This document shows, one piece after another, positions 3,058 to 23,874 of a stretch of 30,400 nt of DNA. The stretch is from an uncultured Gammaproteobacteria bacterium. GTDB lineage: Bacteria > Patescibacteriota > Microgenomatia > Daviesbacterales > UBA10151. The stretch covers positions 1-30,400 of the forward strand of contig CAYHYM010000009.1 in assembly GCA_964360965.1 (NCBI GenBank), written 5' to 3'. Both the position numbers and the translations under genes were made by a program. A model generated the notes under the pieces. The model made no database searches, was not told where the DNA came from, and saw only the letters and a program-made list of their open reading frames with translations. The stretch's first letter is position 1; the number at the start of each line of letters is the position of its first letter.

Positions 3058-4446
3058 TTAAAGTTTGAATCTTCTATCCGCTAAAAAAGGGTTGGGTTTT
3101 CTTTTCATCTCTCCTGTACCCAAAAGTATACCTCTTTGCAAAGTAAATTCACCATATTTGTTGTTAATTTGATCTATAGCTTGAATAATTTTTTCTTGAA
3201 CAGCTGATTCTGGTAATAAAGACAGATTTTGGGGAGTTTCACTCTTTAAATTAGAGATAGAAACTCCCACCGTTCTAATTTTATCTCCATTCCAGATAGT
3301 ATGAAATATCTTCCAGGTAGCTTTAAAAATTTCTAGACCATCACAAGTATATGGGATAGTTACTTGCATCCCATCACCATGGAACACACCTCCGAGGTGT
3401 AACTGCATTTCTTCACCTCGGAGGTGGAAGCTATATCTAAACCAGCAGTGGACAGTTCTACCAACTAATTTTTTAGCTCTCAACCTTCTAGCTACTAACT
3501 CTGTCAGTTTTAATAAAAGCTGTTTGATCTCCTCTAGGTTATTAGTATCATGAGAAGTAGTGTGCCTATGCCCAATACTCTTAACCTCTTCTTTCTCATA
3601 AAAAGGGATAATAGGAGCATGATTTATTCCACGACTGCAATCATATAAAAATTGCCCATAGCTTTTAAAATAAAAAATTAAAATATCAAGAGTTGCCTCT
3701 CTTAGCTGTTTAAAATTAAAAATTCCCAGTTTATTCAGCCTATTTTTAATCCCTGGACCTATTCCACAAACAGCATCAAGTTCCAGTTTATCCAAAACCT
3801 TAATTGCCTCTTTCTGATTGGCAATAATCACCAACCCATCTGGCTTTTGTAAAGATCCAGCAAGCTTTGCCAAAAGCTTGTTATATGAAATGCCTATGGA
3901 ACAAGTTATCCACTCACCAATTTCAGTTTTGATTCTTTTTTTAATGCTTTTAGCAATTTCTAATATGTCATCCCCGCGTAGGCGGGGATCCAATAAACTG
4001 TTAGCGCTATTATTTAATTGGATTCCTGCATTCGCAGGAATGACAGAAGTAGGTATCTCTAAAAACACTTCATCTATTGAAAACACCTCCAGATAGGGAG
4101 AATAATCTTTTAGAATATTTAAAAACTTTTTTGTTGTCTCCAAATATTTATCAGAATCCCCTGGGACAATTGTAATTTGCGGACAAAGCTTTTTGGCTTC
4201 CCAAATTTGCATGCCGGTTTTAACTCCGAACTTTTTAGCCTCTACAGAGGCTGCCCCAATCACTGTCCGTTCCCCGCCTCGACTCGCTCGCTCGTCGGGC
4301 GAGGCGGGCATCCTATCTCCACCAGTAACCCCAATTGGTTTTCCTCTCAGCCTGGGATTAGCCTGCTGCTCCACAGTAGCAAAGTAGCTATTAAAATCAA
4401 CATGTAAAATAGTTCTTATTCTTCTTCTACCATCTCCAGAAACCAT
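3058..4446 (-). CDS. dinB: Y-family DNA polymerase IV
   Basis: ILHVDFNSYFATVEQ, KPIGVTGG, SIDEVFLE, SIGISYNKLLAKLAGSLQKPDG, GIGPGIKNRLNKLGI. The ORF is interrupted in frame by three GC-rich elements. Confidence 0.9.
   Translation of the reverse strand: MVSGDGRRRIRTILHVDFNSYFATVEQQANPRLRGKPIGVTGGDRMPASPDERASRGGERTVIGAASVEAKKFGVKTGMQIWEAKKLCPQITIVPGDSDKYLETTKKFLNILKDYSPYLEVFSIDEVFLEIPTSVIPANAGIQLNNSANSLLDPRLRGDDILEIAKSIKKRIKTEIGEWITCSIGISYNKLLAKLAGSLQKPDGLVIIANQKEAIKVLDKLELDAVCGIGPGIKNRLNKLGIFNFKQLREATLDILIFYFKSYGQFLYDCSRGINHAPIIPFYEKEEVKSIGHRHTTSHDTNNLEEIKQLLLKLTELVARRLRAKKLVGRTVHCWFRYSFHLRGEEMQLHLGGVFHGDGMQVTIPYTCDGLEIFKATWKIFHTIWNGDKIRTVGVSISNLKSETPQNLSLLPESAVQEKIIQAIDQINNKYGEFTLQRGILLGTGEMKRKPNPFLADRRFKL
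3386..3426. repeat. pair of inverted REP-like hairpins inside dinB
   Basis: ACACCTCCGAGGTGT (3386-3400) and CACCTCGGAGGTG (3414-3426) are mutual reverse complements. Translated in frame as HLRGEEMQLHLGGV. Confidence 0.7.
3967..4044. mobile_element. 78-nt MITE-like element with terminal inverted repeats, in frame in dinB
   Basis: Left end GTCATCCCCGCGTAGGCGGGGATCCAAT. Right end ATTGGATTCCTGCATTCGCAGGAATGAC, the reverse complement of GTCATTCCTGCGAATGCAGGAATCCAAT. Encodes VIPANAGIQLNNSANSLLDPRLRGDD (26 codons). Confidence 0.75.
4266..4310. repeat. GC-rich hairpin insertion inside dinB
   Basis: CCCGCCTCG (4273-4281) pairs with CGAGGCGGG (4300-4308). Encodes PASPDERASRGGE between the conserved blocks KPIGVTGG and VIGAASVEAKKFGV. 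Confidence 0.65.
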
Positions 4447-4903: not shown

Positions 4904-6397
4904 ATGAAGATATTTGTTATAACGCTATTTCTCCTCTCATTTTTTTTAGTATTCAACTCCCCAGTCAAAGCCATAGTTGATCCCCTCTCTGTTCCTAACA
5001 ATAAATTTGGCATTCATATTATTCAAGCTACTCCTGATGAATCATCTCCGGCGGCCCAACTAGTCAACACCAACGGTGACTGGGGCTATATTACTTTTTT
5101 AATAGAATCCAAGGATAGAAATGAAAGTAAATGGCAGGAGTTTTTTAATGATCTAAGAAGAAAACATCTAATTCCGATTGTTAGGTTAGCCACCAAACCA
5201 GTTAATACTCACTGGGAAAGACCTTATGAAAAAGAGGGTGAAGCTTGGGCCCACTTTTTAGACAAATTAGTCTGGCCTACCAAAAACAGGTATATCATTA
5301 TCTATAATGAGCCAAATCATGCTCAAGAATGGGGAAATTTTACAGATCCTATTTCTTATGCCCATATTTTAAATGACACCATAGATACTCTAAAGAAAAA
5401 GTCTCCGGATTTTTATGTCTTAAATGCCGGTTTTGATGCTTCAGCCCCTCATCAACCACCTAGATTTTTTGATGAAGTAGTTTTTTTACAGGAAATGGAA
5501 AAGGCAGTACCGGGAATTTTTGAAAAATTAGATGGGTGGGTGTCACATTCCTATCCAAATCCGGAATTTTCCGGTTCTCCGGATGCTTTGGGGCGAGGCA
5601 CTGTTCGAACCTACGTTTGGGAACTACAGCAACTGCGTAATTTGGGTGTTTCGAAAAATTTGCCTGTTTTTATCACAGAAACCGGCTGGAAACATGCTGA
5701 AGGATTAACTTTTGAGCCTAGATTCCCTGCAGCAGATACTGTGGCCAGATATTACCAACAGGCTTTTGAAAATGCCTGGAACAGTTCCAGGATCATCGCC
5801 GTGACTCCATTTTTATTAAGCTATCAAGAGCCTTTATTTGCCCATTTTTCCTTTAAAGGACCCACCAATTCCGGACTATATTATCCTCAATATGACACCA
5901 TCAAAAACATGCCTAAAATTTCCGGCCAACCCATCCAGGAAAACAAGGCTACTTTAATCAAAGGTGAGGTCTTTTCATCCATTGTTTCAGGAGAAACTTA
6001 TACCATTTTTCTAACTTTCAAAAATAGCGGCCAATCAATCTGGAATGATGGCTCGCCTCGCTCCTCGCCTCGCGGCGAAGCGGGCGCGGGCGGAGCGGGG
6101 AAAAGGGTGGCTTTGGTGCCAATTGAAAGTGGCAGAGAATTGGGCATAGAACAGATATCCATTCCAGATGGGGTGCAAATTGAACCGGGCAAAGAATATA
6201 CCTTCCAAATTCAACTGAAAGCTCCGCTGAAGGGTATTTTTAAGGTTAGTTTGAATCTGTTTACCGGCAGCCACCCGTTTGATTCAAAACCACCGGTTAT
6301 TTTGCGCCTTTTAACTAAATTAAAATGGAGAAATTCTCCGGCCGGAGAATATATTTTAAGAACTATCGGCACCATAGGTGAATCTACTCAATTATAA
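4904..6397 (+). CDS. secreted clan GH-A-like glycoside hydrolase with C-terminal Ig-like domain
   Basis: Signal peptide MKIFVITLFLLSFFLVFNSPVKA. IIIYNEPNH (acid/base-type NEP motif) and VFITETGW (nucleophile-type TE motif). C-terminal beta-rich region carries a GC-rich insert. Confidence 0.5.
   Translation: MKIFVITLFLLSFFLVFNSPVKAIVDPLSVPNNKFGIHIIQATPDESSPAAQLVNTNGDWGYITFLIESKDRNESKWQEFFNDLRRKHLIPIVRLATKPVNTHWERPYEKEGEAWAHFLDKLVWPTKNRYIIIYNEPNHAQEWGNFTDPISYAHILNDTIDTLKKKSPDFYVLNAGFDASAPHQPPRFFDEVVFLQEMEKAVPGIFEKLDGWVSHSYPNPEFSGSPDALGRGTVRTYVWELQQLRNLGVSKNLPVFITETGWKHAEGLTFEPRFPAADTVARYYQQAFENAWNSSRIIAVTPFLLSYQEPLFAHFSFKGPTNSGLYYPQYDTIKNMPKISGQPIQENKATLIKGEVFSSIVSGETYTIFLTFKNSGQSIWNDGSPRSSPRGEAGAGGAGKRVALVPIESGRELGIEQISIPDGVQIEPGKEYTFQIQLKAPLKGIFKVSLNLFTGSHPFDSKPPVILRLLTKLKWRNSPAGEYILRTIGTIGESTQL
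6051..6100. repeat. GC-rich element (SPRSSPR..GEAGAGGAG family) in frame in the hydrolase gene
   Basis: GCTCGCCTCGCTCCTCGCCTCGCG+GCGAAGCGGGCGCGGGCGGAGCGGGG. Both blocks recur exactly in uvrA at 20723-20793 on the other strand. Confidence 0.8.
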
Positions 6398-6470
6398 AGT
6401 AAAAACTATTACTAAAAAGCTAAACATTGGATATTGAAAATATCTGACTAATCAGTATATACTTTAATCC

Positions 6471-6758
6471 ATGAATGATACCCAAAAAATGCTTCAGGCT
6501 ATTATTAATGGGCAAAGTTCCATTAAACAAGAGTTGTCAGGTAAAATTGATAAAGTTGATCAAAAAGTAGAGAAATTAGCTGGAACAGTAGCAGGACTGG
6601 ATGGGAAAATTGATAAAGTGGAAAAAAGATTGACAGAAAGACTAGATAAAATTGGCAAACAACTCGCATATCTTGAGGATGACACTCCAACTAGAGAAGA
6701 GTATGACGAACTAGAAGAGAGGGTAGATAAAATGAGCGAAGCTCCTGCTTCGCAGTAG
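6471..6758 (+). CDS. hypothetical small coiled-coil protein
   Basis: 95-aa ORF with heptad-like KIDKV repeats and an acidic tail. Confidence 0.5.
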   Translation: MNDTQKMLQAIINGQSSIKQELSGKIDKVDQKVEKLAGTVAGLDGKIDKVEKRLTERLDKIGKQLAYLEDDTPTREEYDELEERVDKMSEAPASQ

Positions 6759-6816: not shown

Positions 6817-6919
6817 TTGACAAGTAATAAATAGTATGGTTAAATATACTTACTTGTTAACCGAAAGGTTTACAAGTTCTCGAAGAAAGCCCCGCAAGGG
6901 GTTTTTTTCGTGGTAAAAT
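6817..6919 (+). repeat. 103-nt promoter-hairpin-terminator module, copy 1
   Basis: 102/103 identical to 8352-8454. Contains TTGACA-N17-TTAAAT, a 10-bp hairpin with GAAA loop, an intrinsic terminator, then TGgTAAAAT. Confidence 0.85.
6852..6908 (+). ncRNA. candidate ~55-nt small RNA (copy 1)
   Basis: Predicted start about 7 nt after TTAAAT (6840-6845). Hairpin CTTGTTAACC-GAAA-GGTTTACAAG (6853-6876). Terminator GCCCC-GCAA-GGGGT plus T-run (6886-6908). Confidence 0.35.
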
Positions 6920-7002: not shown

Positions 7003-7074
7003 GGAGACGTTGGTGTAACGGTAGCACAACAGATTGTGGATCTGTTAGCGGGGGTTCAACTCCCCTACGCCTCC
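7003..7074 (+). tRNA. tRNA-His(GUG) with encoded G-1
   Basis: G-1 at 7003 pairs with C73. Acceptor GAGACGT/ACGCCTC (one A/C mismatch), D arm GTGT-AACGGTA-GCAC, anticodon loop TT-GTG-GA, T arm GGGGG-TTCAACT-CCCCT. Confidence 0.8.
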
Positions 7075-7086
7075 CACGTATGTTTT

Positions 7087-8351: not shown

Positions 8352-8454
8352 TTGACAAGTAATAAATAGTATGGTTAAATATACTTACTTGTTAACCGAA
8401 AGGTTTACAAGTTCTCGAAGAAAGCCCCGCAAGGGGCTTTTTTCGTGGTAAAAT
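8352..8454 (+). repeat. 103-nt promoter-hairpin-terminator module, copy 2
   Basis: 102/103 identical to 6817-6919. The only difference is C versus T in the terminator stem. Ends 9 nt before tRNA-Arg. Confidence 0.85.
8387..8443 (+). ncRNA. candidate ~55-nt small RNA (copy 2)
   Basis: Same architecture as 6852-6908. Terminator GCCCC-GCAA-GGGGC followed by TTTTTT. Confidence 0.35.
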
Positions 8455-8463
8455 TAAACATAT

Positions 8464-8536
8464 GCGCCCGTAGTTTAATGGATAGAACGTGTGGCTTCGG
8501 ACCATAAGGTTGGGGGTTCGACTCCCTCCGGGCGCG
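8464..8536 (+). tRNA. tRNA-Arg(UCG)
   Basis: Acceptor GCGCCCG/CGGGCGC, anticodon stem TGTGG/CCATA, loop CT-TCG-GA, T arm GGGGG-TTCGACT-CCCTC. Confidence 0.8.
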
Positions 8537-8546
8537 CACCCAAAAT

Positions 8547-8681: not shown

Positions 8682-8936
8682 ATGTCTTGGTATGTCTACA
8701 TTGCAAAAGCAAAAACAGGTAGATACTACACCGGTATCACCACAAATCCAAATAAAAGAATTATTAAACATAACTCAGGTAAAGGTTCAAGGTTTGCCAT
8801 AGAACAAGGTCCACTTGAACTGGTCTATATCTCCAAAGCATTTCCAGACAAATCAAAAGCAAGAAAACGGGAAATTCAAATCAAAGGTTGGTCAAGAGAA
8901 AAGAAATTAAAACTAATAAGCGGAGTGTGGAAGTAA
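8682..8936 (+). CDS. GIY-YIG nuclease superfamily protein (YhbQ/UPF0213-like)
   Basis: WYVYIAK..GRYYTGITTNPNKRIIKHN...KREIQIKGWSREKK, the typical stand-alone GIY-YIG layout (84 aa). Confidence 0.75.
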   Translation: MSWYVYIAKAKTGRYYTGITTNPNKRIIKHNSGKGSRFAIEQGPLELVYISKAFPDKSKARKREIQIKGWSREKKLKLISGVWK

Positions 8937-13354: not shown

Positions 13355-14671
13355 TCATAGTAGCGCTTCCTTATTCCTTAGTTTTCTATGGAAAGTTAAG
13401 GCAAACCTGTGAGCTTCATCACGCAATTTTTGCAAAAGCTGCAAACTTAAGGATTTTTTGGAAAGTTTTATAATTCGAGCCTTGCGAGAATTACTCAGCG
13501 AAATTCGAGCCTTGCGAGAATTACTCAGTGAAGCGCTAATTTCTCCCTCCGGGGGATAGAGCCATTCCCTTCTTTTGGCCAGACCGAAGATGGGTAGATT
13601 GTGATTAGTAGTTTGTAGTTCGTAGTTTACCGCATTAACTTGTCCCTTGCCACCATCTACTATTATCAGATTAGGGATAGGCCAATCTTTGTGTTTTAAC
13701 CTTCTTCTGATCACTTCTCTCATCATTGCTACATCATTAGGTTTGCCGCTGAGGCGAATCTTAAATTTTCTATACTGTGATTTATCAATATCTCCCTCAT
13801 TTAAAACCACCATTGAACCTGTGGCATTTTTCCCTCCAATATTGGAGATATCATATCCTTCTATTCTTAAAGGTAAAGTTTTTAGATTTAAAACTTTTTT
13901 CAGCTCCTGCAGGGCCAAATTTTTTTGATCTTCGAAAAAATTAGAATTCTCCAAATAAGCCTGGACATTGTTTGGTTGAGTGAGATAATTTATTCCGTCT
14001 ATGATTTTTTTAAGTTTACTTGCTTCTTCAAACTTCTCTCTCTCTGATAGCTTTAACATATCCATTGTCAGTTCCTCAATTAATTTATCCTTTTTCCCGT
14101 CCATAAATTTTGAGAATCGGTTGATTATTTTGTTATAGTCTTCCTTGGAAATTAGCCCAACACAAACTCCTGGACATAATCCCAGATGATGATAAAAACA
14201 TGCTCGACGGGTTCGCAAGGCCAGGCCTTGCGAGGCTGAACACCAAGGGAAGACTTTCCTGAGTAGTTTGAGGGTGTTCCTAACAGTTCTAGCTGAAGGA
14301 AAAGGGCCAAAGAATTTTTTTACCCTTCTCAAATCTTGTTTTCTAAGAGTAATAACTTTGGGAAATTCTTCTTTGGTGATACCAATATATAAATAATCCT
14401 TATCATCTGTTAGTCTGACATTATATTTTGGCAAGTATTTTTTAATAAGACTCGCCTCTAAGATAAGCGCTTCCAACTCTGATGCAACAACAATAGTTTC
14501 AACTGAAGATATTGCAGAAGATAACATGGCTGTCTTTGCGCTCAGACCGAATCGGTTGCTGCGTGAAAAATATGAAGATATCCGATGGTATAAATTTATG
14601 GCTTTACCCACATAAATTACCTGACCATCTTTATTTTTAAAAATATATACCCCGGGTTTTTTGGGAAACAT
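13355..14671 (-). CDS. uvrC: excinuclease ABC subunit C, short form without (HhH)2 domain
   Basis: N-terminal GIY-YIG (PGVYIFKNKDGQVIYVGKA..LYHRISSYF), a UVR-like helix pair (EREKFEEASKLKKIIDGI), IEGYDISNIGG and RDEAHRFAL. The ORF stops about 20 aa after the last motif. Confidence 0.85.
   Translation of the reverse strand: MFPKKPGVYIFKNKDGQVIYVGKAINLYHRISSYFSRSNRFGLSAKTAMLSSAISSVETIVVASELEALILEASLIKKYLPKYNVRLTDDKDYLYIGITKEEFPKVITLRKQDLRRVKKFFGPFPSARTVRNTLKLLRKVFPWCSASQGLALRTRRACFYHHLGLCPGVCVGLISKEDYNKIINRFSKFMDGKKDKLIEELTMDMLKLSEREKFEEASKLKKIIDGINYLTQPNNVQAYLENSNFFEDQKNLALQELKKVLNLKTLPLRIEGYDISNIGGKNATGSMVVLNEGDIDKSQYRKFKIRLSGKPNDVAMMREVIRRRLKHKDWPIPNLIIVDGGKGQVNAVNYELQTTNHNLPIFGLAKRREWLYPPEGEISASLSNSRKARISLSNSRKARIIKLSKKSLSLQLLQKLRDEAHRFALTFHRKLRNKEALL
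13472..13531. repeat. 2 x 30-nt tandem duplication inside uvrC
   Basis: AATTCGAGCCTTGCGAGAATTACTCAG(C/T)GA twice, 29/30 identical. Encodes SLSNSRKARI twice. Confidence 0.85.
14203..14238. repeat. GC-rich palindrome inside uvrC
   Basis: CGCAAGGCC-A-GGCCTTGCG (14214-14232). Shares the GCCTTGCGAG core with the tandem unit at 13472-13531. Encodes ASQGLALRTR. Confidence 0.6.
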
Positions 14672-14673
14672 AA

Positions 14674-16665
14674 TTATTTATTCGAAGCAGGTTTTGCAAA
14701 ACGCCTTCTGTAGATAAGTGTTCCTAAAATGGCAAAGTATAAAACTGCCACCACTGCCACGAGTCCCAATGCAATCCAGGGAAAATTCTGTAGGATGAAA
14801 AATGGCCTGACCTTTATCTCATGTCGTTCCTTTATTCCTGCCACCTGAATCTCAATAACATCATCAAAGCTATCCAAAAGAGATTTAGTTCTGAGTTCAA
14901 ATTCAAACTGGGCAAATCCAAAGGAAGGTATTGGACCAGATTGGACAGCAGCCCCATTTAAAATGTTGACCTGTCCGGCATTGACAGATAAGTTTGATGA
15001 CGGAAGAGCGGCATTTCCCAAATTTTCTATTTTTATATTAATTTTATGGGGAAATCCTGCCAAAATTTGCTTTTTTACATCAATGATTAAATTGGGCTGC
15101 GGCTTTCCCAAAAAATCACTTTGTGATAGCTCCACTTTGACATCATGGCTGTCCATCCCGCTCAATTTATATGAGCCGGCAGGAACAGGCTGCTCTGATG
15201 ATGAACCTTTGATAACAAATACAAAATGATTTAAATCCAGCTTATTAAAATAATCAACTCCACCAGTGGTGTTTTGCCAGGTTGGATCAACCATTACCCA
15301 ACCTCGATTATCATCCCAATACTCAGGCCAGGCATGTAAAATGTCGCGAGACAAAGACAGCGGCCGCAACGCAAGATTGGTGGTATAGGCAAATCCGTCC
15401 AGCTCCCTGGCAGGGATCCCGGCAGCCCGGGTTAAGCTGATAAAAAGATCGGTAAATTCCATACAAACAGCAGAGGTTGGGTTATTTAAGGCTGTAACAG
15501 CGCCCAACCTTTCAATATTTTCATTGGAGAGCCTGGAAGTATCATATTGTAAAGTAGATATCACACTCTGATAAATTAGTTTTACCTTTTGCTCTGTTGA
15601 AGAGGGCTGATTAGTACTTAAGATTTCACTTAGTTTACTTTTAACTGTCGGGTGATCTTTTTCCCAATATTTTTGAGTGGTAGTATATTTTTGATAAAGA
15701 CCGGTCGGTAAGACTGGGTTTTTCACTTTTGTTAAGATATAAAGCTTGGCTGATCCGGTGGCCTTAACAGATAACTTTTGGGCTCTTTTCAGTTTATACC
15801 AGGCAAGATAATTACCATCCTCATCTAAAGTCACATTAATCGGCTTTGGCTCAATTCGCTGATAAATCACCTCCTGATAGGCTGTATCCGGAGGCAGGGC
15901 AATATTGGTGAGAACCGGTACCAGATTGGGATTTTCCAAATTATATGTCAAATTAAAATCATAAACTTGAAAACTGCCAAAAGTGGCGGAAACACCTGAT
16001 AATATCAACTGGTCTTTGTCAAATATTAAAAAGGTCCTGCCGGATGAGGTACTCTGTCGTTTTGGGGTGGGACTGATAATGGAAGGCGGACCAAAGCTTT
16101 GAGGAGTGGAAATTGTCAAATTATAACTTTGAAGACCGGGCGCTGATTGAATTTTGGGAGCGGATATTTCCCAGATTTTACCTAAATGCTGGGCAAAATC
16201 AGATGATTTAAAACTAAGGGTAAAAGGCTGCTCTTTTCCTACTCCCGCTATCTGCTGGTTAAACTTAACTGTGATAGAAGTTGAGGTATCTTTTTGCTCT
16301 GATGTCACCTCCATTAAGCCTCCTTGGTCTGAGGCTTTGATATCGGTAATTTGGGTGGCTCCAATAATAAGTTTAAACTGGCTGGCAAAATATTGACTGG
16401 TTAGATTCCTGAGGGTAATTTTTTCAGTAACTGAAGTTATTCCACTTAAGTCTATATCATAAGTTACATCATATGAGGTGGCAAAATCTTGTCCTGAGCT
16501 AGCTTGCCCTGAGCCTGTCGTACTTCGATTCCACTCAGTACGACCCTGAGTGTTAATCGAATGGGTCGAAGGGGTCGAAGGATCTTCGGCAGCAAAGACA
16601 GCAGTCAGTGAAAAGTAAAAAGTAAAAATTGAAAATATAACAGCCAGGAAAATTTTCTTGATCAT
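14674..16665 (-). CDS. transglutaminase-like cysteine-protease-fold surface protein
   Basis: Cys-His-Asp pattern: AVCMEFTDLF, ILHAWPEYW, WVMVDPTW. N-terminal signal peptide MIKKIFLAVIFSIFTFYFSLTAVFA and a C-terminal TM span. The ORF-track start at 16695 is possible but adds 10 non-signal residues. Confidence 0.75.
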   Translation of the reverse strand: MIKKIFLAVIFSIFTFYFSLTAVFAAEDPSTPSTHSINTQGRTEWNRSTTGSGQASSGQDFATSYDVTYDIDLSGITSVTEKITLRNLTSQYFASQFKLIIGATQITDIKASDQGGLMEVTSEQKDTSTSITVKFNQQIAGVGKEQPFTLSFKSSDFAQHLGKIWEISAPKIQSAPGLQSYNLTISTPQSFGPPSIISPTPKRQSTSSGRTFLIFDKDQLILSGVSATFGSFQVYDFNLTYNLENPNLVPVLTNIALPPDTAYQEVIYQRIEPKPINVTLDEDGNYLAWYKLKRAQKLSVKATGSAKLYILTKVKNPVLPTGLYQKYTTTQKYWEKDHPTVKSKLSEILSTNQPSSTEQKVKLIYQSVISTLQYDTSRLSNENIERLGAVTALNNPTSAVCMEFTDLFISLTRAAGIPARELDGFAYTTNLALRPLSLSRDILHAWPEYWDDNRGWVMVDPTWQNTTGGVDYFNKLDLNHFVFVIKGSSSEQPVPAGSYKLSGMDSHDVKVELSQSDFLGKPQPNLIIDVKKQILAGFPHKINIKIENLGNAALPSSNLSVNAGQVNILNGAAVQSGPIPSFGFAQFEFELRTKSLLDSFDDVIEIQVAGIKERHEIKVRPFFILQNFPWIALGLVAVVAVLYFAILGTLIYRRRFAKPASNK
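16491..16590. repeat. GC-rich composite element (CCTGAGC / GGTCGAAGG family) in frame near the N-terminus of the transglutaminase-like gene
   Basis: Contains CCTGAGC x3, GGGTCGAAGGGGTCGAAGG and the hairpin GTCGTAC-N14-GTACGAC. Encodes PSTPSTHSINTQGRTEWNRSTTGSGQASSGQD. Confidence 0.6.
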
Positions 16666-16749
16666 AATGTCATCCCAGAGAATACCGGGATCCATAAATA
16701 TTGTAGCAATTTTATTATGTCATTGCTAGCGAATGATGGAAAGCTAAAA

Positions 16750-16782
16750 TTTAGCTTGACACCTGAGAGGTGTAAACGTAAA
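16750..16782 (+). repeat. REP-like element upstream of the RAYT ORF
   Basis: TTTAGCTTGACACCTGAGAGGTGTAAACGTAAA with hairpin ACACCT-GAG-AGGTGT at 16759-16773. Exact inverted copy at 26126-26158. Confidence 0.85.
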
Positions 16783-16791
16783 ATAAATTTA

Positions 16792-17448
16792 ATGCCTGGA
16801 AGAAAAACTGTTTTTGAGAATGGATATTTTTATCATGTCTATAACCGGGGCTCTGAAAAAAGGGATATTTTTATAAAACCGCAAAATTATCAAAGATTCA
16901 TAAAAACTATGTACTATTATCAGTACGAGGGACCAAAACTAAGGCTTTCCCTACTAAATCAGGACGGATTCCAAAATTTTAAACCGGATCCCAGTAAGAA
17001 ATTAGTTGAAATTATCTGTTATTGCTTAATGCCTAACCACTTTCACATTCTAATAAAACAACTCAAAGAAAATGGAATTTCTAAATTTATTAGTCAATTA
17101 AGTAATAGCTACACCAAATATTTTAATACCAAATATAAACGTGTAGGAGCTTTATTCCAGGGTGTATTTCAGGCAGTTATTATTGAATCCGATGAACAGT
17201 TCATTCATACCTCCAGATATATTCATTTAAACCCGTCAGTATCAACCTTGGTAGAGAACCCTGCCAATTGGCCTTGGTCCTCTTATACCGAGTATGTTGA
17301 TAAGAAAAAGGGTATTTGTGTTAAAGAACCAATAATGAGTCATTTTCCTTCTGTGGAAGCTTACAAAAAATTTGTCTTGGATCAGCTTGATTACGGGAGG
17401 ATTCTCGAAATCTTAAAACACGGAGCCATTGATTATGATTACACCTGA
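16792..17448 (+). CDS. IS200/IS605-type Y1 (HUH) transposase, REP-associated tyrosine transposase (RAYT)-like
   Basis: YHVYNRG, the HUH motif MPNHFHILIK, and the catalytic-Tyr motif SRYIHLNP. Start set to ATG 16792, because the upstream TTG extension is made of REP sequence. The TGA stop lies inside a REP hairpin. Confidence 0.8.
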   Translation: MPGRKTVFENGYFYHVYNRGSEKRDIFIKPQNYQRFIKTMYYYQYEGPKLRLSLLNQDGFQNFKPDPSKKLVEIICYCLMPNHFHILIKQLKENGISKFISQLSNSYTKYFNTKYKRVGALFQGVFQAVIIESDEQFIHTSRYIHLNPSVSTLVENPANWPWSSYTEYVDKKKGICVKEPIMSHFPSVEAYKKFVLDQLDYGRILEILKHGAIDYDYT

Positions 17449-17457
17449 GAGGTGTAA
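17441..17457 (+). repeat. REP-like hairpin overlapping the RAYT stop codon
   Basis: ACACCTGAGAGGTGTAA is identical over 17 nt to 16759-16775 and in the same orientation. Confidence 0.8.
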
Positions 17458-17560
17458 GCCTCACACAAACTACTTCCGATCGAAAACAACTTGTCATGCG
17501 TACAGGCACATAAGGTCTCACCTTAGTTCAACGGTCGTGTTAACAATGTGATAAGTCCGT

Positions 17561-17579
17561 GCTGACACCTGAAAGATGG
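17561..17579 (+). repeat. degenerate REP-like copy
   Basis: GCTGACACCTGAAAGATGG compared with GCTTGACACCTGAGAGGTG. The second arm is decayed. Confidence 0.4.
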
Positions 17580-17589
17580 AAAGGTAAAT

Positions 17590-18177
17590 TTACCTTCTGA
17601 TTTTTTTTAGAATATGTGAAGCTAATCGAGTTAAGTCTCCAGCCAATAAGAATGCATGAATTCTAAGAACTTCTGCTAAGGTAGGTGTGAGTTCCTTTCT
17701 ATTCTCTCCCAACATTTCACCTAGTAGTTCGCTATCATAATAATACTGCTCACTGCGTACTCTTTCATAATCCACTCCATAGCCCGCTGCCTCCATTAAA
17801 TCAATAATCAGCAGACCTGGTAAGGGTAAACTTTCTGCCCAAGTATTAATAACCTCTTTGGGTGGAATAGTTTCAGTTTCACCATTTGCTCCCATTAAAT
17901 TCCATAACAACTCCAACTTTCCCTCTCCAATTCTTCTATCATGTTCTGCCAGAAATTCTTGATGTAATCCCCATATGGTAAGAACCGCCTCTTTAAAAAA
18001 GTCGGGAGTACCTATACTTGCCGCCAAAGAAGGATCACTCACTCTTCCTATTAAATAACGTTCCTTTACTTCTTCTGGAAATATTGAATGTTCAATTGAA
18101 TAAATAAATATTCGGTTGTGAAGTTCTATATATTTATCCCTAGCCAGCTGAAGCTGTTTAGAAATTTGTTCTTTCAT
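17590..18177 (-). CDS. hypothetical protein, apparently co-transcribed with uvrA
   Basis: 195-aa ORF whose ATG (18177) lies 2 nt after the uvrA stop (18180-18182). Helical and acidic, with no motif recognised. Confidence 0.5.
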   Translation of the reverse strand: MKEQISKQLQLARDKYIELHNRIFIYSIEHSIFPEEVKERYLIGRVSDPSLAASIGTPDFFKEAVLTIWGLHQEFLAEHDRRIGEGKLELLWNLMGANGETETIPPKEVINTWAESLPLPGLLIIDLMEAAGYGVDYERVRSEQYYYDSELLGEMLGENRKELTPTLAEVLRIHAFLLAGDLTRLASHILKKIRR

Positions 18178-18179
18178 AT

Positions 18180-21100
18180 TTATAGTATCTTTGCCAAATA
18201 TTGCCCTGTATAGGAGGATTTGATTTTGGATATATCTTTGGGGGTGCCTTCTGCAATAACTTGTCCGCCTTTATCCCCACCTTCCGGGCCTAAATCTATT
18301 ACCCAATCGGTATTTTTAATCACATCAAGATTGTGCTCTATAATCACCACAGTATTTCCATAGTTTACCAGCTTCCTTAAGATGGTTAATAACCTTTCTA
18401 TATCAGCAAAATGTAAACCGGTGGTGGGTTCGTCCAAAATATAAAGAGTGTGACCAGTTGGACGCTTAGATAATTCAGCAGAAAGTTTAATCCTTTGTGC
18501 CTCTCCACCAGACAGCGTGGGAGCTGGTTGGCCCAATTTTATATATCCCAATCCCACATCATTTAGTACTTGCAGTTTATTTTTGATATTGGGAATATTT
18601 TCAAAAAACTTTAAAGCTTCCTCAACAGTCATGTCCAAAACTTCAGAAATATTTTTATCCTTAAAGTGAATTTCCAAAGCCTCCCTGTTGTAGCGGGCAC
18701 CGTTGCAAGCCTCACAAGTCACATAAACATCCGGCAAAAACTGCATTTCAATTTTGAGCTGCCCTTCCCCTTCACAAACCTCACACCTTCCACCTTTGAC
18801 ATTAAAGGAAAACCTGCCTGGTCCATAACCCCTAATTTTAGCTTCAGTACTTTGGGCAAATAGGTCTCTGACAAAGGTAAAGGCTTCTGTATAGGTGGCC
18901 GGATTTGAGCGGGGAGTCCGGCCTATTGGTGATTGGTCTACCAAAACCACTTTATCCACATACTCTACCCCCTCCAGTTCTTTAAAAGCCCCTGGTCTTT
19001 CCTTGGATCTATAAATTTTTTGAGCTAACGCCTTATATAAGATGTCGTGAATTAAAGTAGATTTTCCGGATCCTGAAACCCCTGATATGGCTATAAACTG
19101 CCCTAAAGGAAAATCCACATTGATATTTTTTAAATTGTGTTGAGAAGCACCAAGAACCTTCAAAACATGATTGTCATTCCCGCGCAGGTCATCGACTCCG
19201 AGGTCGCTCAGACTCGAGGAGCGGGAATCTATTTTAATATTATTTATGGATCCCGTATCCCTTCGGCCTCGCTCAGGGCGGGCAAGTTCAGGATGACCGT
19301 GAACAGTCACTTTTTTCTTACCTGATAAATACTGTCCAGTTAAAGATGTAGTACTTTTTTTAATCTGATCCGGAGTGCCTGTGGTTACTATCTCCCCACC
19401 ATGTTCACCAGCTCCTGGCCCAATTTCAATTAATAGATCTGCATTCTCCATCATCTCTGCATCATGCTCATTAACTATCACTGTATTTCCCAAATCTCTT
19501 AATTTTTTTAAAGTTTCAATTAATCTTGAGTTATCTCTTTGGTGTAAACCAATAGAAGGCTCATCTAAAACATACAAAACTCCGGATAAACCCGAACCAA
19601 TTTGGGAGGCCAGCCTGATTCTTTGTGATTCTCCCCCGGCTAAGGTCATAGCAGCGCGATCCAGCGTTAAATAATCCAAACCAACATCAATTAAGAACTT
19701 AACTCTGGCTTGGATTTCTTTTAAAATAGGTTTGGCAATTTGAGTTTCACGATCATTTAAAATAGATTCTATCACTTCACTACGTTTCGCTCCAGAATGA
19801 CTATTCCCCAATCTTTTAATCCATTCCAAAGCCTCTTTAATAGATTGTGTCACCACTTCTGCAATATTTAATCCATCAATGGTTATTGACAAGGCTTCAT
19901 CTTTAAGTCTTGCTCCATGACACTTAGGACAAATCTCTTTAACCATATATTTTTCTATTTCCCTTTTCACATAATCAGATTCGGATTCTTGATATCTTTG
20001 TTTTAGGTATGAAACCAAACCTTGAAAGCTAGATTTAAAATGAGTCCATCTTCCCTCTCTGTTTCTTCCTTCCACTCTAAATTCTTCGTCCCCAGCACCA
20101 TTAAGTAGCACATTTCTGGCTTTCTCAGATAATTCACCCAGTCTGGTATTTAAATCAAAACCGTAAACTTTGCCTACTGACTGAATAAGTCTTGAGAACC
20201 AGGTTTCATGAGTGGCTAACTTTTGCCATGGTAAAATTCCACCTTCTGCAATAGATAAAATGGGGTTTAAAACCATTTCCGGATCAATTTCCAAAAGTGA
20301 TCCTAAACCATGGCAGGTAGGACAAGCTCCATGAGGAGAATTAAAAGAAAATAGTCTTGGTTCCACCTCGGATAAGGCAATATTGTCAACCGGACAGGCA
20401 AATCTTTCAGAATAAAGATGATCGTCCATTTTCTTGGGATTTTGGGGAAATTCTAAAGAAGCGTCCAGGACTTCAGAAACAATCACGGATCCTTCACCTA
20501 ATTTGAGCGCTGTCTCGATGGATTGGGAGAGCCTGTTTATAATGTCATTCCCGCGCATGCGGGAATCCAATTCCGAACGTGACTTTGTTAATTGGATCCT
20601 CCTCGAGTCTGAGCGACCTCGGAGTCGAAGACCTGCCTTCGCAGGGATAACAGACTTATCCAATATGAGTCTGTCCACTACTGCATCGATAGTATGCTTA
20701 TTAGTTTTAATCAACACTAAATCCCCCGCTCCGCCCGCGCCCGCTTCGCCGCGCCCTGCGTCGCCGGAGGCGCGAGGCGAGGAGCGAGGCGAGTCTGTTA
20801 AGTCTCTAATTTGTCCATCAACCCTAACCTTTGAAAAACCTTTTTTCCTCAAATCTTCAAAAAGTTGGAAATATTCTCCTTTTCTGTCTTTAACCACAGG
20901 AGCCAAAATCATTATTCTTCTCGAAGACCCTGAGCGAGACTTCGACGGTGAGTCTTTCGACCCTGAGCTCAAGACCGAAGGGCTCAGTCGAACCGCGTAG
21001 CGAGTCGAAGGGTTCCCTACCACTTGTTCCACAATTTGTTCTACTGACATTCTACTAATCTCCCTTCCACAAATTGGACAATGGGGATGGCCAACCCTGG

Positions 21101-21443
21101 CAAATAAAAGCCTTAAATAATCATAGACCTCAGTAGTTGTTCCCACAGTAGAACGTGGATTATGTGAAACACCTTTTTGGTCAATAGAGATGGCCGGGGA
21201 TAAACCCTCAATATAATCAACATCAGGCTTGTCCATTACCCCTAAAAACTGCCTGGCATAAGCAGATAAAGATTCCACATATCTTCTTTGACCTTCTGCA
21301 TAAAGGGTATCAAAAGATAAAGAAGACTTGCCGGAACCGGAAATCCCCGTTAAAACCACCAACTTGTTCTTGGGAATTTCCAGATCAATATTCTTGAGGT
21401 TATGCTCTCTCGCCCCTTTTATAATAATCTTATCTATAGCCAT
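18180..21443 (-). CDS. uvrA: excinuclease ABC subunit A, expanded by in-frame insertions
   Basis: GISGSGKSSL and GVSGSGKSTL Walker A motifs. Two LSGGE signatures (LAGGESQRIRLA, LSGGEAQRIKLS). Zinc modules CPxC...CxxCxG. 1087 aa. Confidence 0.95.
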   Translation of the reverse strand: MAIDKIIIKGAREHNLKNIDLEIPKNKLVVLTGISGSGKSSLSFDTLYAEGQRRYVESLSAYARQFLGVMDKPDVDYIEGLSPAISIDQKGVSHNPRSTVGTTTEVYDYLRLLFARVGHPHCPICGREISRMSVEQIVEQVVGNPSTRYAVRLSPSVLSSGSKDSPSKSRSGSSRRIMILAPVVKDRKGEYFQLFEDLRKKGFSKVRVDGQIRDLTDSPRSSPRASGDAGRGEAGAGGAGDLVLIKTNKHTIDAVVDRLILDKSVIPAKAGLRLRGRSDSRRIQLTKSRSELDSRMRGNDIINRLSQSIETALKLGEGSVIVSEVLDASLEFPQNPKKMDDHLYSERFACPVDNIALSEVEPRLFSFNSPHGACPTCHGLGSLLEIDPEMVLNPILSIAEGGILPWQKLATHETWFSRLIQSVGKVYGFDLNTRLGELSEKARNVLLNGAGDEEFRVEGRNREGRWTHFKSSFQGLVSYLKQRYQESESDYVKREIEKYMVKEICPKCHGARLKDEALSITIDGLNIAEVVTQSIKEALEWIKRLGNSHSGAKRSEVIESILNDRETQIAKPILKEIQARVKFLIDVGLDYLTLDRAAMTLAGGESQRIRLASQIGSGLSGVLYVLDEPSIGLHQRDNSRLIETLKKLRDLGNTVIVNEHDAEMMENADLLIEIGPGAGEHGGEIVTTGTPDQIKKSTTSLTGQYLSGKKKVTVHGHPELARPERGRRDTGSINNIKIDSRSSSLSDLGVDDLRGNDNHVLKVLGASQHNLKNINVDFPLGQFIAISGVSGSGKSTLIHDILYKALAQKIYRSKERPGAFKELEGVEYVDKVVLVDQSPIGRTPRSNPATYTEAFTFVRDLFAQSTEAKIRGYGPGRFSFNVKGGRCEVCEGEGQLKIEMQFLPDVYVTCEACNGARYNREALEIHFKDKNISEVLDMTVEEALKFFENIPNIKNKLQVLNDVGLGYIKLGQPAPTLSGGEAQRIKLSAELSKRPTGHTLYILDEPTTGLHFADIERLLTILRKLVNYGNTVVIIEHNLDVIKNTDWVIDLGPEGGDKGGQVIAEGTPKDISKIKSSYTGQYLAKIL
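19173..19297. mobile_element. TIR MITE-like element in uvrA with nested insertions
   Basis: The GTCATTCCCGCGCAG..GCGGGAATC end is split by a 33-nt element at 19188-19220. The GGATCC..TCAGGATGAC end contains a CTGAGCG/CCGAAGG-type segment at about 19254-19287. Confidence 0.65.
20544..20651. mobile_element. TIR MITE-like element in uvrA with one nested 33-nt insertion
   Basis: Intact end GTCATTCCCGCGCATGCGGGAATCCAATT. The other end, ATTGGATCC|CTGCCTTCGCAGGGATAAC, is split by TCCTCGAGTCTGAGCGACCTCGGAGTCGAAGAC (20600-20632). 108 nt, 36 codons. Confidence 0.75.
20723..20793. repeat. GC-rich element (SPRSSPR..GEAGAGGAG family) in frame in uvrA
   Basis: Reverse complement is CTCGCCTCGCTCCTCGCCTCGCG + 21 extra nt + GCGAAGCGGGCGCGGGCGGAGCGGGGG. 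The 23-nt and 26-nt blocks are identical to 6052-6100. Confidence 0.8.
20920..21013. repeat. GC-rich composite element (CCTGAGC / GTCGAAGG family) in frame in uvrA
   Basis: Contains CCCTGAGCGAGAC, CCCTGAGCTCAAGACCGAAGGGCTCAG and GCGAGTCGAAGGG. Encodes about 30 residues (STRYAVRLSPSVLSSGSKDSPSKSRSGSS) where canonical UvrA has a short linker. Confidence 0.65.
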
Positions 21444-21461
21444 AGTTTATAATCCCTTCGG

Positions 21462-21571
21462 GTCCGAGCTCTTCGAGTCCGAGCTCTTCGAGTCCGAGCC
21501 TCAGAGTCGAGGACCTCAGAGTCGAGGACCTCAGGGTCGAAGACCTGAGCGACCGAAGGGAGTCGAAGGAC
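21462..21571. repeat. GC-rich ~15-nt-period tandem array in the uvrA 5' region
   Basis: Units all start GTC(C)GA: GTCCGAGCTCTTCGA x2, GTCCGAGCCTCAGA, GTCGAGGACCTCAGA, GTCGAGGACCTCAGG, GTCGAAGACCTGAGCGACCGAAGGGA, GTCGAAGGAC. Confidence 0.8.
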
Positions 21572-21682
21572 ACTAAAATTACCGCACTATTGTAAACCAT
21601 TTTGCAAGATTTTTAAAGGATTAATATGTTAAAATCTGTTCAAAATGAAGATAGAACAATATTTACTACAGAATCCAATACT

Positions 21683-21724
21683 TTAAATACTTAATTCCTT
21701 AATCTGATCTCTTAATCTGGCCGC
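21683..21724 (-). pseudogene. recoded duplicate of the uvrB 3' end (13 codons + stop)
   Basis: Encodes AARLRDQIKELSI*, identical to the uvrB C-terminus at 21759-21800. It has 9 nucleotide differences, all synonymous. It is out of frame with uvrB and lies behind stop codons. Confidence 0.7.
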
Positions 21725-21758
21725 CCAACGGGCGAGCCTCGCCTTAGATTAGCTACTT

Positions 21759-23771
21759 TTAAATACTTAACTCTTTTATTTGATCTCTAAGGCGGGCTGC
21801 TTCTTCAAAATCTAATATTTCTGCTGCTTGGTGCATTTGTTCCTCTAAATTTCCGATCATTTTCTGCCTCTCATTAACTGGTATATCTTCTATAGTTAAT
21901 TCTTTTTTACCCAATTTTTCCTCTATTTCTTCAACTTTCTCAATAAGTCTTTCCCTCAAAGCTTTTTCAATGCTTCTGGGTTTTATGTTATGCTTTTTAT
22001 TATATTCCATCTGGTACTTTCTTCTTCTGTCTACCTCCTCAATTGCTGACTTCATAGATTTGGTCATATTATCTGCATACATAATTACTTGCCCCTTAAC
22101 ATGTCTGGCAGCCCTGCCCATGGTTTGGATCAAAGAAGTTTTGCTTCTTAAAAAACCCTCTTTATCCGCATCCAAAATAATTACCAAAGTTACTTCAGGC
22201 AAATCCAATCCTTCCCTTAAAAGATTAATTCCCACAATCACATCATATTCACCTAATCTTAAAGACTGGAGAATATCAGATCTTTTTAAAGTTTCTATAT
22301 CAGAATGTAAGTAATTTACTTTAATGCCTCTCTCTTTTAGATAATCAGTCAAATCTTCTGCCATTCTTTTGGTAAGTGTAATAATTAGCACCCGTTCTCT
22401 ACGTTCCACCCTTTTTTCCACCTCAGAAATGATATCCTGAATCTGTCCTTGTGTAGGTCTGACAGAAACTTGAGGATCAAAAATGCCTGTAGGTCTGATA
22501 AGCTGCTCTGCTATCCCACACCCGGTGTGGGTTTGAGTTGACACACCGGGTGTGTGTCCTGAACAGGCCAAACTTATCTCATACTCATCCGGAGTTGCTG
22601 AAGCATAAATTACCTGATTAATTTTTCTCTGAAACTCATCAAATCTTAAGGGTCTATTATCCAAAGCAGAAGGAAGCCTGAAACCAAACTCAATCAAAGT
22701 TTCTTTTCTGGAACGGTCTCCGTTGTACATCCCACGCAGTTGGGGCAAAGTGATGTGGGACTCATCAATAATCAATAAAAAATCTTCAGGAAAATATTCC
22801 ATTAAAGTATACGGAGGGTCACCTTCTTTTCTGCCTTCAAAATATCTGGAATAATTTTCTATCCCATTACAATAACCGAATTCCTTAATCATCTCCAGAT
22901 CATAATAAGTTCTTTGTTCCAGTCTCTGAGCTTCTACTAATTTGCCTTGTTTTCTTAAATCTTTAATCCTAAATCTTAAATCTTCTTCTATTTGTTTTAT
23001 AGCAGGCAACATTCTGGACTCCGGAGTAATATAGTGTTTGGCAGGATAGATGGTTAAGGTTTGAGGGGTTGGGGTAGCAACACCAGTCAAAGGATCCAAG
23101 TGCGAAATTCTCTCTATCTTATCTCCTAAAAATTCTACTCTGACAGCTTGTTCCAAATAAGCAGGGAAAATATCTATAGTGTCTCCCTTAACTCTGTAGG
23201 TAGATCTTTTAAAATCCAAGTCATTTCTTGAATAAAACATCTTTTGAAGCATTTTAAGAATCGTCTGGAAACCTGTTCTTACCCCCATCTTTAGCTCTAA
23301 AATTGCCCCGCCATATTCAGCGGGAGATCCCAAATTGTAGATACAAGAAACTGAGGCGACCACTATCACATCTTTTCTGGTCATTAAAGAAGTCGTTGCA
23401 GAAAGGCGCAATTTTTCTATCTCTTCATTAATATTGGTCTCTTTTTCAATATATGTATCTGATTGGGGTACATAAGCCTCAGGCTGATAATAATCATAAT
23501 AAGATACAAAATACTCGCAAGCATTTTTGGGAAATAAAGACCTAAATTCTTGAGCTAGCTGTCCTGCTAAAGTTTTATTGTGGGAAATAACCAAAGTGGG
23601 TCTTTGCACTTTCTGGATCACATTGGCCATGGTAAAGGTTTTACCGGATCCAGTCACACCCAGTAGTACCTGATGTTCTTGTCCAGAATTAAGCCCGGAA
23701 ACAAGCTTCTCAATAGCTTGAGGTTGGTCACCTGTAGGTTTGAATTCAGAAATAATCTTAAATTTTGCCAT
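21759..23771 (-). CDS. uvrB: excinuclease ABC subunit B
   Basis: FKPTGDQPQAI, Walker A GVTGSGKTFT, DESH box (IIDESHITLPQ), helicase motifs, and a C-terminal UVR domain (LDFEEAARLRDQIKEL). Start set to ATG 23771 (MAKFKIISEFKP). The track start at 23780 is a TTG. Confidence 0.95.
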   Translation of the reverse strand: MAKFKIISEFKPTGDQPQAIEKLVSGLNSGQEHQVLLGVTGSGKTFTMANVIQKVQRPTLVISHNKTLAGQLAQEFRSLFPKNACEYFVSYYDYYQPEAYVPQSDTYIEKETNINEEIEKLRLSATTSLMTRKDVIVVASVSCIYNLGSPAEYGGAILELKMGVRTGFQTILKMLQKMFYSRNDLDFKRSTYRVKGDTIDIFPAYLEQAVRVEFLGDKIERISHLDPLTGVATPTPQTLTIYPAKHYITPESRMLPAIKQIEEDLRFRIKDLRKQGKLVEAQRLEQRTYYDLEMIKEFGYCNGIENYSRYFEGRKEGDPPYTLMEYFPEDFLLIIDESHITLPQLRGMYNGDRSRKETLIEFGFRLPSALDNRPLRFDEFQRKINQVIYASATPDEYEISLACSGHTPGVSTQTHTGCGIAEQLIRPTGIFDPQVSVRPTQGQIQDIISEVEKRVERRERVLIITLTKRMAEDLTDYLKERGIKVNYLHSDIETLKRSDILQSLRLGEYDVIVGINLLREGLDLPEVTLVIILDADKEGFLRSKTSLIQTMGRAARHVKGQVIMYADNMTKSMKSAIEEVDRRRKYQMEYNKKHNIKPRSIEKALRERLIEKVEEIEEKLGKKELTIEDIPVNERQKMIGNLEEQMHQAAEILDFEEAARLRDQIKELSI
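22515..22558. repeat. pair of REP-like hairpins inside uvrB
   Basis: CCCACAC-CCG-GTGTGGG (22515-22531) and TTGACACAC-CGG-GTGTGTGTC (22538-22558). Encodes SGHTPGVSTQTHTGCG in frame. Confidence 0.7.
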
Positions 23772-23779
23772 GACAGCCA

Positions 23780-23788
23780 ATTATATCA
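23780..23788 (-). promoter_or_regulatory. candidate extended -10 promoter of uvrB (TGaTATAAT), near-leaderless
   Basis: On the minus strand TGATATAAT ends at 23780 and the ATG at 23771 starts 9 nt after the hexamer. No SD is present. Confidence 0.4.
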
Positions 23789-23809: not shown

Positions 23810-23839
23810 TTGACATCTTCGGGTTGTGTTTGGTAATGT
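23810..23839 (+). promoter_or_regulatory. candidate lexA promoter
   Basis: TTGACA (23810-23815), an 18-nt spacer ending in TGg, then TAATGT (23834-23839). Confidence 0.4.
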
Positions 23840-23874
23840 TTAAGGTATGGTTCGACTTCGCTCACCATTATAAT

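Follow-up and report, generated by a model that had tools for sequence, protein, structure and literature searches.

A modular, nested GC-rich hairpin repeat shared in frame by a hydrolase gene and uvrA on a contig of the Candidate Phyla Radiation

Results

Two copies of a GC-rich element in unrelated genes

The window analyzed here is the entire 30.4-kb contig CAYHYM010000009.1 (GC content, 38.4%), beyond whose end a further locus (L011) supplies ~3.7 kb more sequence. Our subject is a short GC-rich hairpin element that occurs in two unrelated genes of this window. One of them, on the forward strand (4904 to 6397), codes for what its homologues and an AlphaFold model indicate to be a secreted, cellulase-like hydrolase with a TIM-barrel and a C-terminal immunoglobulin-like domain, the C-terminus of which is missing. 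The other is uvrA, on the reverse strand (18180 to 21443), whose product has 1,087 aa against ~965 aa in its relatives and carries at least five hairpin-derived insertions. For both proteins, the homologues bear the name Candidatus Daviesbacteria, i.e., they come from the Microgenomates of the Candidate Phyla Radiation (CPR).

Positions 6052 to 6074 and 6075 to 6100 of the forward strand, within the hydrolase gene, are exact reverse complements of positions 20771 to 20793 and 20724 to 20749 in uvrA, giving an exact match of 49 bases between a block of 49 nt (6052 to 6100, forward strand) and one of 70 nt (20724 to 20793, reverse strand). An earlier note on this DNA, made from the sequence alone, had reported the two shared halves and their translations, and recomputation reproduced both; the uvrA match lies where that note had placed it (20723 to 20793), except that the block ends one base further in, at 20724. 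The uvrA copy is longer by 21 bases (20750 to 20770), which are exactly seven codons, as had been stated, and which sit at the apex of the hairpin; they are bordered by CGCG microhomology, which leaves a 4-nt ambiguity in their register. Each half is present exactly twice in the window when up to three mismatches are allowed, and dinucleotide-preserving shuffles produced no match to either half at the same tolerance. The two copies are not assembly artifacts, because both were recovered in independent ENA assemblies of replicate Hainich groundwater samples (L001/L002 and L016).

Closer delimitation of the two copies shows that the true inserts measure 48 nt, or 16 codons, in the hydrolase gene (6052 to 6099, forward strand) and 69 nt, or 23 codons, in uvrA (20725 to 20793, reverse strand). 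The final G common to both blocks is the displaced third base of the host codon that each insert splits, namely, a Gly codon in the hydrolase gene (GG^G) and a Glu/Asp codon in uvrA (GA^G). Both copies accordingly split a codon behind its second base, and the earlier observation of one element lying in two unrelated genes, sense in each and in the same codon phase, is upheld. The identity between the copies extends precisely to the termini of the element, beyond which the flanks have no homology to each other; this indicates that the unit itself, rather than an arbitrary patch of uvrA, was copied.

The insertion points

The 23 residues inserted in UvrA (residues 218 to 240, SPRSSPRASGDAGRGEAGAGGAG) break the UvrB-interaction domain: the Pfam UvrA_inter match extends no further than residue 221, and the insert likewise interrupts the alignment with UvrA of M. 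tuberculosis. Neither solved UvrAs nor 110 of 120 Daviesbacteria UvrAs have these residues, and their removal yields the length of those 110 proteins, in which DLxD/E is directly followed by D(L/F)VLIK. In the closest UvrA relative (P0122, from locus L106), the empty site reads GAG GAT, and placing the 69-nt element after the GA of this site regenerates the sequence seen in the window down to the last G of the GGG codon. Insertion after GA explains why the codon before the insert is GAC (Asp) in all carriers, when noncarriers have either Asp (56) or Glu (54) at this point. It also explains why the final GGN codon of the insert varies at a single base, its last (G, C, C, A, T, and G across the carriers), and why the block common to the two window copies comprises 49 rather than 48 nt. 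Comparison of the empty GAG GAT with the filled site reveals no target-site duplication, and no duplication or clear common motif is seen at the junctions known so far, four in number (CAGA^G, ATGG^G, GCTC^C, and CTCG^C).

The 16 residues inserted in the hydrolase (residues 384 to 399, SPRSSPRGEAGAGGAG) sit between the motifs WNDG and K(K/R)xxLV in an alignment with 25 relatives, none of which has them (0/25), and the remaining homologues lack them too, so that the insert is missing from all 119 other homologues. The homologues are Daviesbacteria proteins of 550 to 620 aa, some of them named as members of the cellulase family. In the AlphaFold model (pLDDT [predicted local distance difference test] score, 77), the inserted residues form a low-confidence loop of the C-terminal beta domain, flanked by the strands 365 to 374 and 402 to 408. 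The window hydrolase ends ~75 aa earlier than all of its homologues (region 6300 to 6470) and also has a 9-aa deletion (VEFTTEVKE). The open reading frame (ORF) downstream of it (6471 to 6758) encodes an unrelated coiled-coil protein.

Stand-alone and nested units at one uvrA codon

Related inserts are found at exactly the same uvrA codon in 10 of the 120 UvrA homologues. The peptides they encode are SPRGEAG (P0135, P0186, and P0223), SPRGGAG (P0209), SPRSAGGAG (P0137 and P0178), SPRSARGAG (P0149), SPRASVDARRGEVG (P0158), and a decayed SSGGAG (P0177). The DNA, compared for six of the ten carriers, resolves these inserts into units that can be nested in one another, which we denote by brackets. 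Unit Y is the 21-nt form CTCGCCTCGCGGCGAAGCGGG (L100/L101) and unit X the 27-nt form CTCGCCTCGCTCCGCGGGCGGAGCGGG (L102); X, Y, and Y[Z] each stand alone at this same uvrA codon in other Daviesbacteria, the last in L099, where Y has a 21-nt apical addition (Z') resembling the additional 21 nt of the window.

The hydrolase copy is X[Y]: it consists of the X of L102 with the exact Y of L100 (21 of 21 bases) placed after position 12, so that 27 and 21 nt add up to 48. Its components on the forward strand are the 5' arm of X (CTCGCCTCGCTC, 6052 to 6063), the inner Y (6064 to 6084), and the 3' arm of X (CGCGGGCGGAGCGGG, 6085 to 6099). The uvrA copy is X[Y[Z]], i.e., the hydrolase copy with the 21-nt unit Z (CCTCCGGCGACGCAGGGCGCG, 20750 to 20770, reverse strand, with the register ambiguity noted above) at the apex of Y; of the two window copies, it alone has Z. 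All units share the termini 5'-CTCGCCTCGC...GCGGG-3' and have lengths that are multiples of three, and every variant folds into a single hairpin. The central 6 nt of X read GCGGGC in L102 (10586 to 10611) and the reverse complement, GCCCGC, in L103 (10592 to 10617) and L059, a flipped apex that is suggestive of intrastrand template switching. In L105, the insert is decayed, with its 5' arm lost and its codons drifted toward AT richness. These comparisons establish that the hairpin is a discrete and modular unit whose ends are defined; it is filled or empty at one uvrA codon, nests within itself, and was copied once into another gene of this genome.

Distribution, conservation, and copy number

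In a neighbor-joining tree built from 947 well-occupied columns of UvrA, the ten carriers are scattered, each beside insert-free sisters, and the X and Y types do not track the tree. Such a scatter calls for some nine gains at a single codon or else for many exact losses, and it points to repeated precise gain or loss. Between carrier species, the 4-fold synonymous sites of uvrA are only 30 to 45% identical, which amounts to saturation, whereas the third positions of the codons common to the elements agree in 70 of 75 pairwise comparisons (93%). Near-constancy against such a background implies that the hairpin bases are either under constraint or repeatedly renewed.

Further copies were sought in ~1.2 to 1.46 Mb of Microgenomates DNA, sampled around homologues of the hydrolase and at uvrA loci, of which ~125 kb come from carrier genomes; a handful of copies per genome would still be compatible with this sample. 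Two copies lie in the 30.4-kb window, and the one in the hydrolase gene is the only ectopic copy found in the sampled DNA; the other family members (L099, L100/L101, L102, L103/L059, L104, and the decayed L105) all occupy a single orthologous codon of uvrA. When the GC-rich islands of this sample were clustered de novo, the same two sites emerged and none further. In JGI metagenomes, a pattern of the inner part had no match, and the two matches to a pattern of the termini were both on contigs of 69 to 70% GC and were judged to be noise. The X and Y patterns had no match in IMG/VR, where an 18-mer matched only GC-rich phage contigs and was likewise set aside. When the six-frame peptides were joined into a 136-aa concatenation, none of the 8,000 low-complexity protein candidates scored reached an E value of 10 or less. 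Rfam recognized only tRNAs in the window and had no match at the element, and the literature yielded nothing relevant on in-frame palindromic repeats in CPR/Patescibacteria or on peptides such as VIPAKAGI.

Reading frame, orientation, and RNA folding

The hydrolase and UvrA read the element in the same frame. Since all six frames of the element are free of stop codons, a second copy would agree with the first in both orientation and frame by chance in one case of six, and the independent sites number only two, with no third found. Of the six possible peptides, the one read in the host frame is the least basic and the least hydrophobic. The common orientation and frame could be due to chance, or they could reflect a filter for such a peptide, and a selective filter of this kind is plausible. 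The evidence does not establish a constraint on orientation or frame as a rule, at which the earlier note had hinted. The sister hairpin families B (in uvrA) and C (in dinB), described below, occur in both orientations within one gene. The same note had raised the possibility that G:U pairing makes the RNA hairpin strand-specific. This is not borne out, as the sense strand is hardly more stable in its folding than the antisense strand (-32.7 versus -30.4 and -45.9 versus -40.6 kcal/mol) and the z-scores are unremarkable.

A RAYT-like gene next to uvrA

At a distance of 730 bp from uvrA lies a gene for an HUH/Y1 transposase (16792 to 17448, forward strand; listed ORF, 16717 to 17448) that resembles the transposases associated with repetitive extragenic palindromic (REP) sequences, known as REP-associated tyrosine transposases (RAYTs), and that is a candidate mobilizing enzyme for hairpin repeats. 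The ORF matches Pfam PF01797, the IS200-like Y1 transposase family, at 1.9e-9; among PDB entries, it is matched best by E. coli TnpA-REP (4ER8; E = 0.08), in an alignment that pairs the HUH and YIxxNP motifs of the two. Five relatives have no such gene between uvrA and the transglutaminase gene, and RAYT homologues are present at 8 of ~80 related loci. Together with a 195-aa ORF (17590 to 18177), the gene is not found at this position in relatives. A REP-like hairpin, ACACCTGAGAGGTGT, is situated on the forward strand just upstream of its start codon (16750 to 16782) and again at its stop codon (17441 to 17469), and a degenerate further copy follows at 17565 to 17593. A perfect 33-nt copy in inverted orientation (26126 to 26158) is found inside the ORF of an RsmI-like methyltransferase (25689 to 26366), where it is read as TLRLHLSGVKLN and appears to be another in-frame hairpin insertion.

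Other hairpin families and repeats in the window

The window holds several other GC-rich hairpins, located in dinB (3967 to 3991, 4020 to 4044, and 4263 to 4320), in uvrC (14202 to 14238), in the transglutaminase gene (15395 to 15437), and in uvrA itself (19179 to 19225, 19257 to 19289, 20544 to 20568, and 20599 to 20636). The genes richest in hairpin insertions are the DNA-damage genes dinB, uvrC, and uvrA, which are clustered with uvrB and a gene for a LexA-like repressor (3058 to 4446, 13355 to 14671, 18180 to 23780, and 23824 to 24492). This concentration may be coincidental, may reflect tolerance, or may be connected with single-stranded DNA. Family B is a 38-nt GC-rich repeat, GCAGGTCATCGACTCCGAGGTCGCTCAGACTCGAGGAG, with two uvrA copies in opposite orientations (19184 to 19221 and 20599 to 20636), each read in frame (SSSLSDLGVDDLRG and AKAGLRLRGRSDSRR); tandem 15-nt units related to this repeat occur in the uvrA-uvrB spacer (21497 to 21547). 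Family C consists of hairpins of the form GTCATYCCCGCG..GCGGGRATCC, read as VIPAKAGIQ ... LDSRxRGND. Two of them lie in opposite orientations in dinB (3967 to 3991 and 4020 to 4044), a pair that is kept in another Daviesbacteria species, and one is in uvrA (20544 to 20568); in dinB as elsewhere (L014, 3364 to 3438; L099, 2433 to 2507), they form inverted pairs ~25 to 30 nt apart, resembling the paired REP structures called REPINs. A small census placed 11 of 14 family C copies within ORFs, with sense copies always in one frame and antisense copies in another, and many of the sites are orthologous. Nesting is also seen between these families: at 19179 to 19225, a family C hairpin has a family B unit in its loop (GATTCCCGC[B]GCGGGAATGAC). 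A separate family of perfect palindromes, CCTGCCTGCCGGCAGGCAGG, is present at eight related Microgenomates loci (L023, L033, L044, L058, L063, L068, L077, and L098) and surfaces as PAGRQ/PACRQAG peptides in some UvrA homologues.

Repeats of other kinds were also noted. A 103-nt direct repeat with 99% identity (6817 to 6919 and 8352 to 8454) lies upstream of tRNA-His (7004 to 7075) and directly upstream of tRNA-Arg (8464 to 8537), with a small GIY-YIG ORF (8682 to 8936) nearby. In uvrC, a 30-nt (10-codon) tandem duplication, perfect to 97%, spans 13472 to 13531. The uvrA-uvrB spacer contains 22 nt (21546 to 21567) with 86% complementarity to the T-arm and 3' end of tRNA-Arg (8517 to 8538), which may be a tRNA-derived fragment.

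Discussion

The account that we hold to be probable, though with no great confidence, is that the element is a modular, GC-rich mobile hairpin repeat of the kind of the REPs or the Rickettsia palindromic elements (RPEs), native to Candidatus Daviesbacteria and tolerated in surface loops of proteins. We infer that it is selfish or neutral DNA rather than a functional module. Under this proposal, the uvrA site would have held members of the hairpin family across Daviesbacteria species, and the composite would have been copied with exact ends into the hydrolase gene; this event would have been very recent, because 48 of 48 bases are identical. Alternatively, both window copies might derive from an unseen third one. 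With a length that is a multiple of three, a position after the second codon base, and no stop codon, the insert would be read through as a peptide rich in Ser, Pro, Arg, Gly, and Ala, which probably forms a disordered surface loop; such an insert is likely to be tolerated, given its length and its six open frames. Movement would most likely have involved a single-stranded DNA hairpin handled by a RAYT-type HUH Y1 transposase.

Several observations weigh against this proposal. The junctions have neither a target-site duplication nor a target motif in common. With up to three substitutions allowed, the family was found in the sampled Microgenomates DNA only at the uvrA codon and in the window hydrolase, and DNA pattern scans did not find the exact element in GTDB representative genomes, in JGI metagenomes, or in IMG/VR. 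Strong conservation of bases at a single orthologous site is also what a functional uvrA feature passed on by vertical inheritance could show. With respect to the candidate enzyme, the best NCBIfam match is indeed the REP-associated tyrosine transposase (4.2e-16), but its 59 bits fall under the curated cutoff of 80; moreover, the hairpins that flank the gene are those of the ACACCTGAGAGGTGT family, a different one, and nothing ties the RAYT to the element. Finally, the hydrolase gene, being truncated, may be decaying, which makes the frame at that site weak evidence of selection.

The main rival explanation is one that we consider unlikely but deserving of serious attention. It holds that the hairpin is an old, vertically inherited resident of Daviesbacteria uvrA, selected as a DNA or mRNA hairpin or as a protein loop and changing in place by slippage and hairpin-templated repair, and that the hydrolase copy is a one-off ectopic product of, e.g., templated repair synthesis, without any transposition system. 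Every member but the hydrolase copy being at one orthologous codon, its bases conserved far above the saturated synonymous background, and the GAC codon common to all carriers speak for this explanation. So, too, does the AT-shifted remnant in L105, as expected under vertical descent after loss of the hairpin, and the reverse-complementary X centers of L102 and L103 fit template switching within a hairpin. However, vertical inheritance would require dozens of exact losses to leave 10 scattered carriers among 120 UvrAs, and it is at odds with the discordance between the X/Y types and the tree. Furthermore, the hydrolase copy has the exact ends of the element with no uvrA flank, and X[Y] amounts to X with an exact Y of identical ends added, as insertion or excision of a discrete unit predicts. 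A second form of change in place, which we regard as distinctly improbable, would have the composite grow by replication slippage through direct duplications in each arm, with the likeness of X and Y reflecting the common ancestry of a motif rich in CTCGC/GCGGG and with only the hydrolase copy having moved. Direct repeats are indeed seen in both arms (CTCGCCTCGC twice and GCGGGC twice), and the 21-nt difference is bordered by CGCG microhomology; yet slippage would have to produce separate, matching, frame-keeping duplications in the two arms, and the exact agreement with Y (21 of 21 bases) and X (27 of 27 bases), both known as stand-alone inserts, would be a coincidence.

That the shared block is no more than a chimeric assembly of GC-rich reads or a chance similarity of low-complexity sequence is an explanation to which we give hardly any credence. 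The coverage is low (~4 to 5x, going by the contig names) and the sequence is of low complexity, but identical copies in assemblies of replicate samples, related forms in NCBI and ENA genomes from other sites, the failure of any shuffle to give a match, and the intactness of both host reading frames all contradict it. Other known routes to short shared segments were considered and rejected. The template and variable repeats of a diversity-generating retroelement do not apply, as the copies are identical, with no adenine-specific variation and no reverse transcriptase; an intein or intron is dismissed because the element is far too short and is read through in frame; and homologous gene conversion between the hydrolase gene and uvrA is incompatible with flanks that lack homology.

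The closest precedents for a mobile hairpin repeat of this kind are found among bacterial palindromic elements. The RPEs are selfish palindromic repeats inserted in frame in unrelated genes, where they are translated as an additional peptide that appears compatible with the protein fold (PMC10969869). The present element is like them in its in-frame insertion in unrelated coding genes, with the same peptide frame in the hydrolase and UvrA. However, the RPEs measure ~100 to 150 bp and have a high copy number in Rickettsia, an alphaproteobacterium, whereas this element is built from units of 21 to 27 nt (21 to 69 nt in all), is very GC rich in a CPR genome of 38% GC, is nested, and has a low observed copy number. 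By inspection, the two have no sequence similarity, and Rfam has no match at the element. Classical REPs are described as extragenic, usually present in hundreds of copies, and marked by a conserved GTAG or CGTC head (PMC3733652). The units described here, of 21 and 27 nt and with each variant forming one hairpin, agree with REPs and REPINs in being short (20 to 40 nt), imperfect, GC-rich palindromes, and they share the context of a hairpin-flanked RAYT-like Y1 gene; a target-site duplication is expected of neither. They differ in that all known copies are intragenic and in frame, in having the termini CTCGCC... and ...GCGGG without a GTAG/CGTC head, and in that the hairpin flanking the RAYT gene is not this element.

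The MITEs of bacteria (miniature inverted-repeat transposable elements), such as Correia, ERIC, and Nezha, are small nonautonomous repeats capable of nesting and of giving rise to in-frame fusions (PMC10969869). The present element shares these traits, but MITEs have terminal inverted repeats matching those of an insertion sequence, generate target-site duplications, and are usually 100 to 400 bp long; none of this is seen here, where the whole element is one hairpin. Insertion of the IS200/IS605 type takes place 3' of a fixed tetra- or pentanucleotide without duplication; the lack of duplication at our element would be consistent with this, and its four junctions have no clear common motif. 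A further parallel comes from the G+C clusters of yeast mitochondria, which are short, GC-rich mobile palindromes in an AT-rich genome and occasionally lie in frame in var1 as presence/absence polymorphisms. These clusters are organellar and eukaryotic, belong to other sequence families, and are mostly intergenic.

If the mobile-repeat account is correct, the element would be an unusually clear case of protein loops arising from selfish hairpin DNA in steps of 21 to 27 bases, with the empty, single, double, and triple states all visible among related genomes. It would extend the RPE phenomenon to the CPR and to much smaller units, with a tentative link to RAYT transposases, and would offer a testable system with defined ends, a known empty site, and a nearby candidate enzyme. 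More speculatively, and on balance we think it rather unlikely, CPR bacteria may host REP-like units that are driven by many RAYT-type Y1 transposases, colonize coding sequences in frame, and grow by nesting at the apex, making them a general source of lineage-specific loops in CPR proteins. Were this so, the conservation of the uvrA hairpin would reflect either ongoing site-specific reinsertion akin to homing or an effect on the hairpin itself, through selection or GC-biased self-correction. For the annotation of such genomes, insertions of this kind would account for odd low-complexity peptides and for the inflated lengths of CPR proteins, such as the UvrA of 1,087 aa described here.

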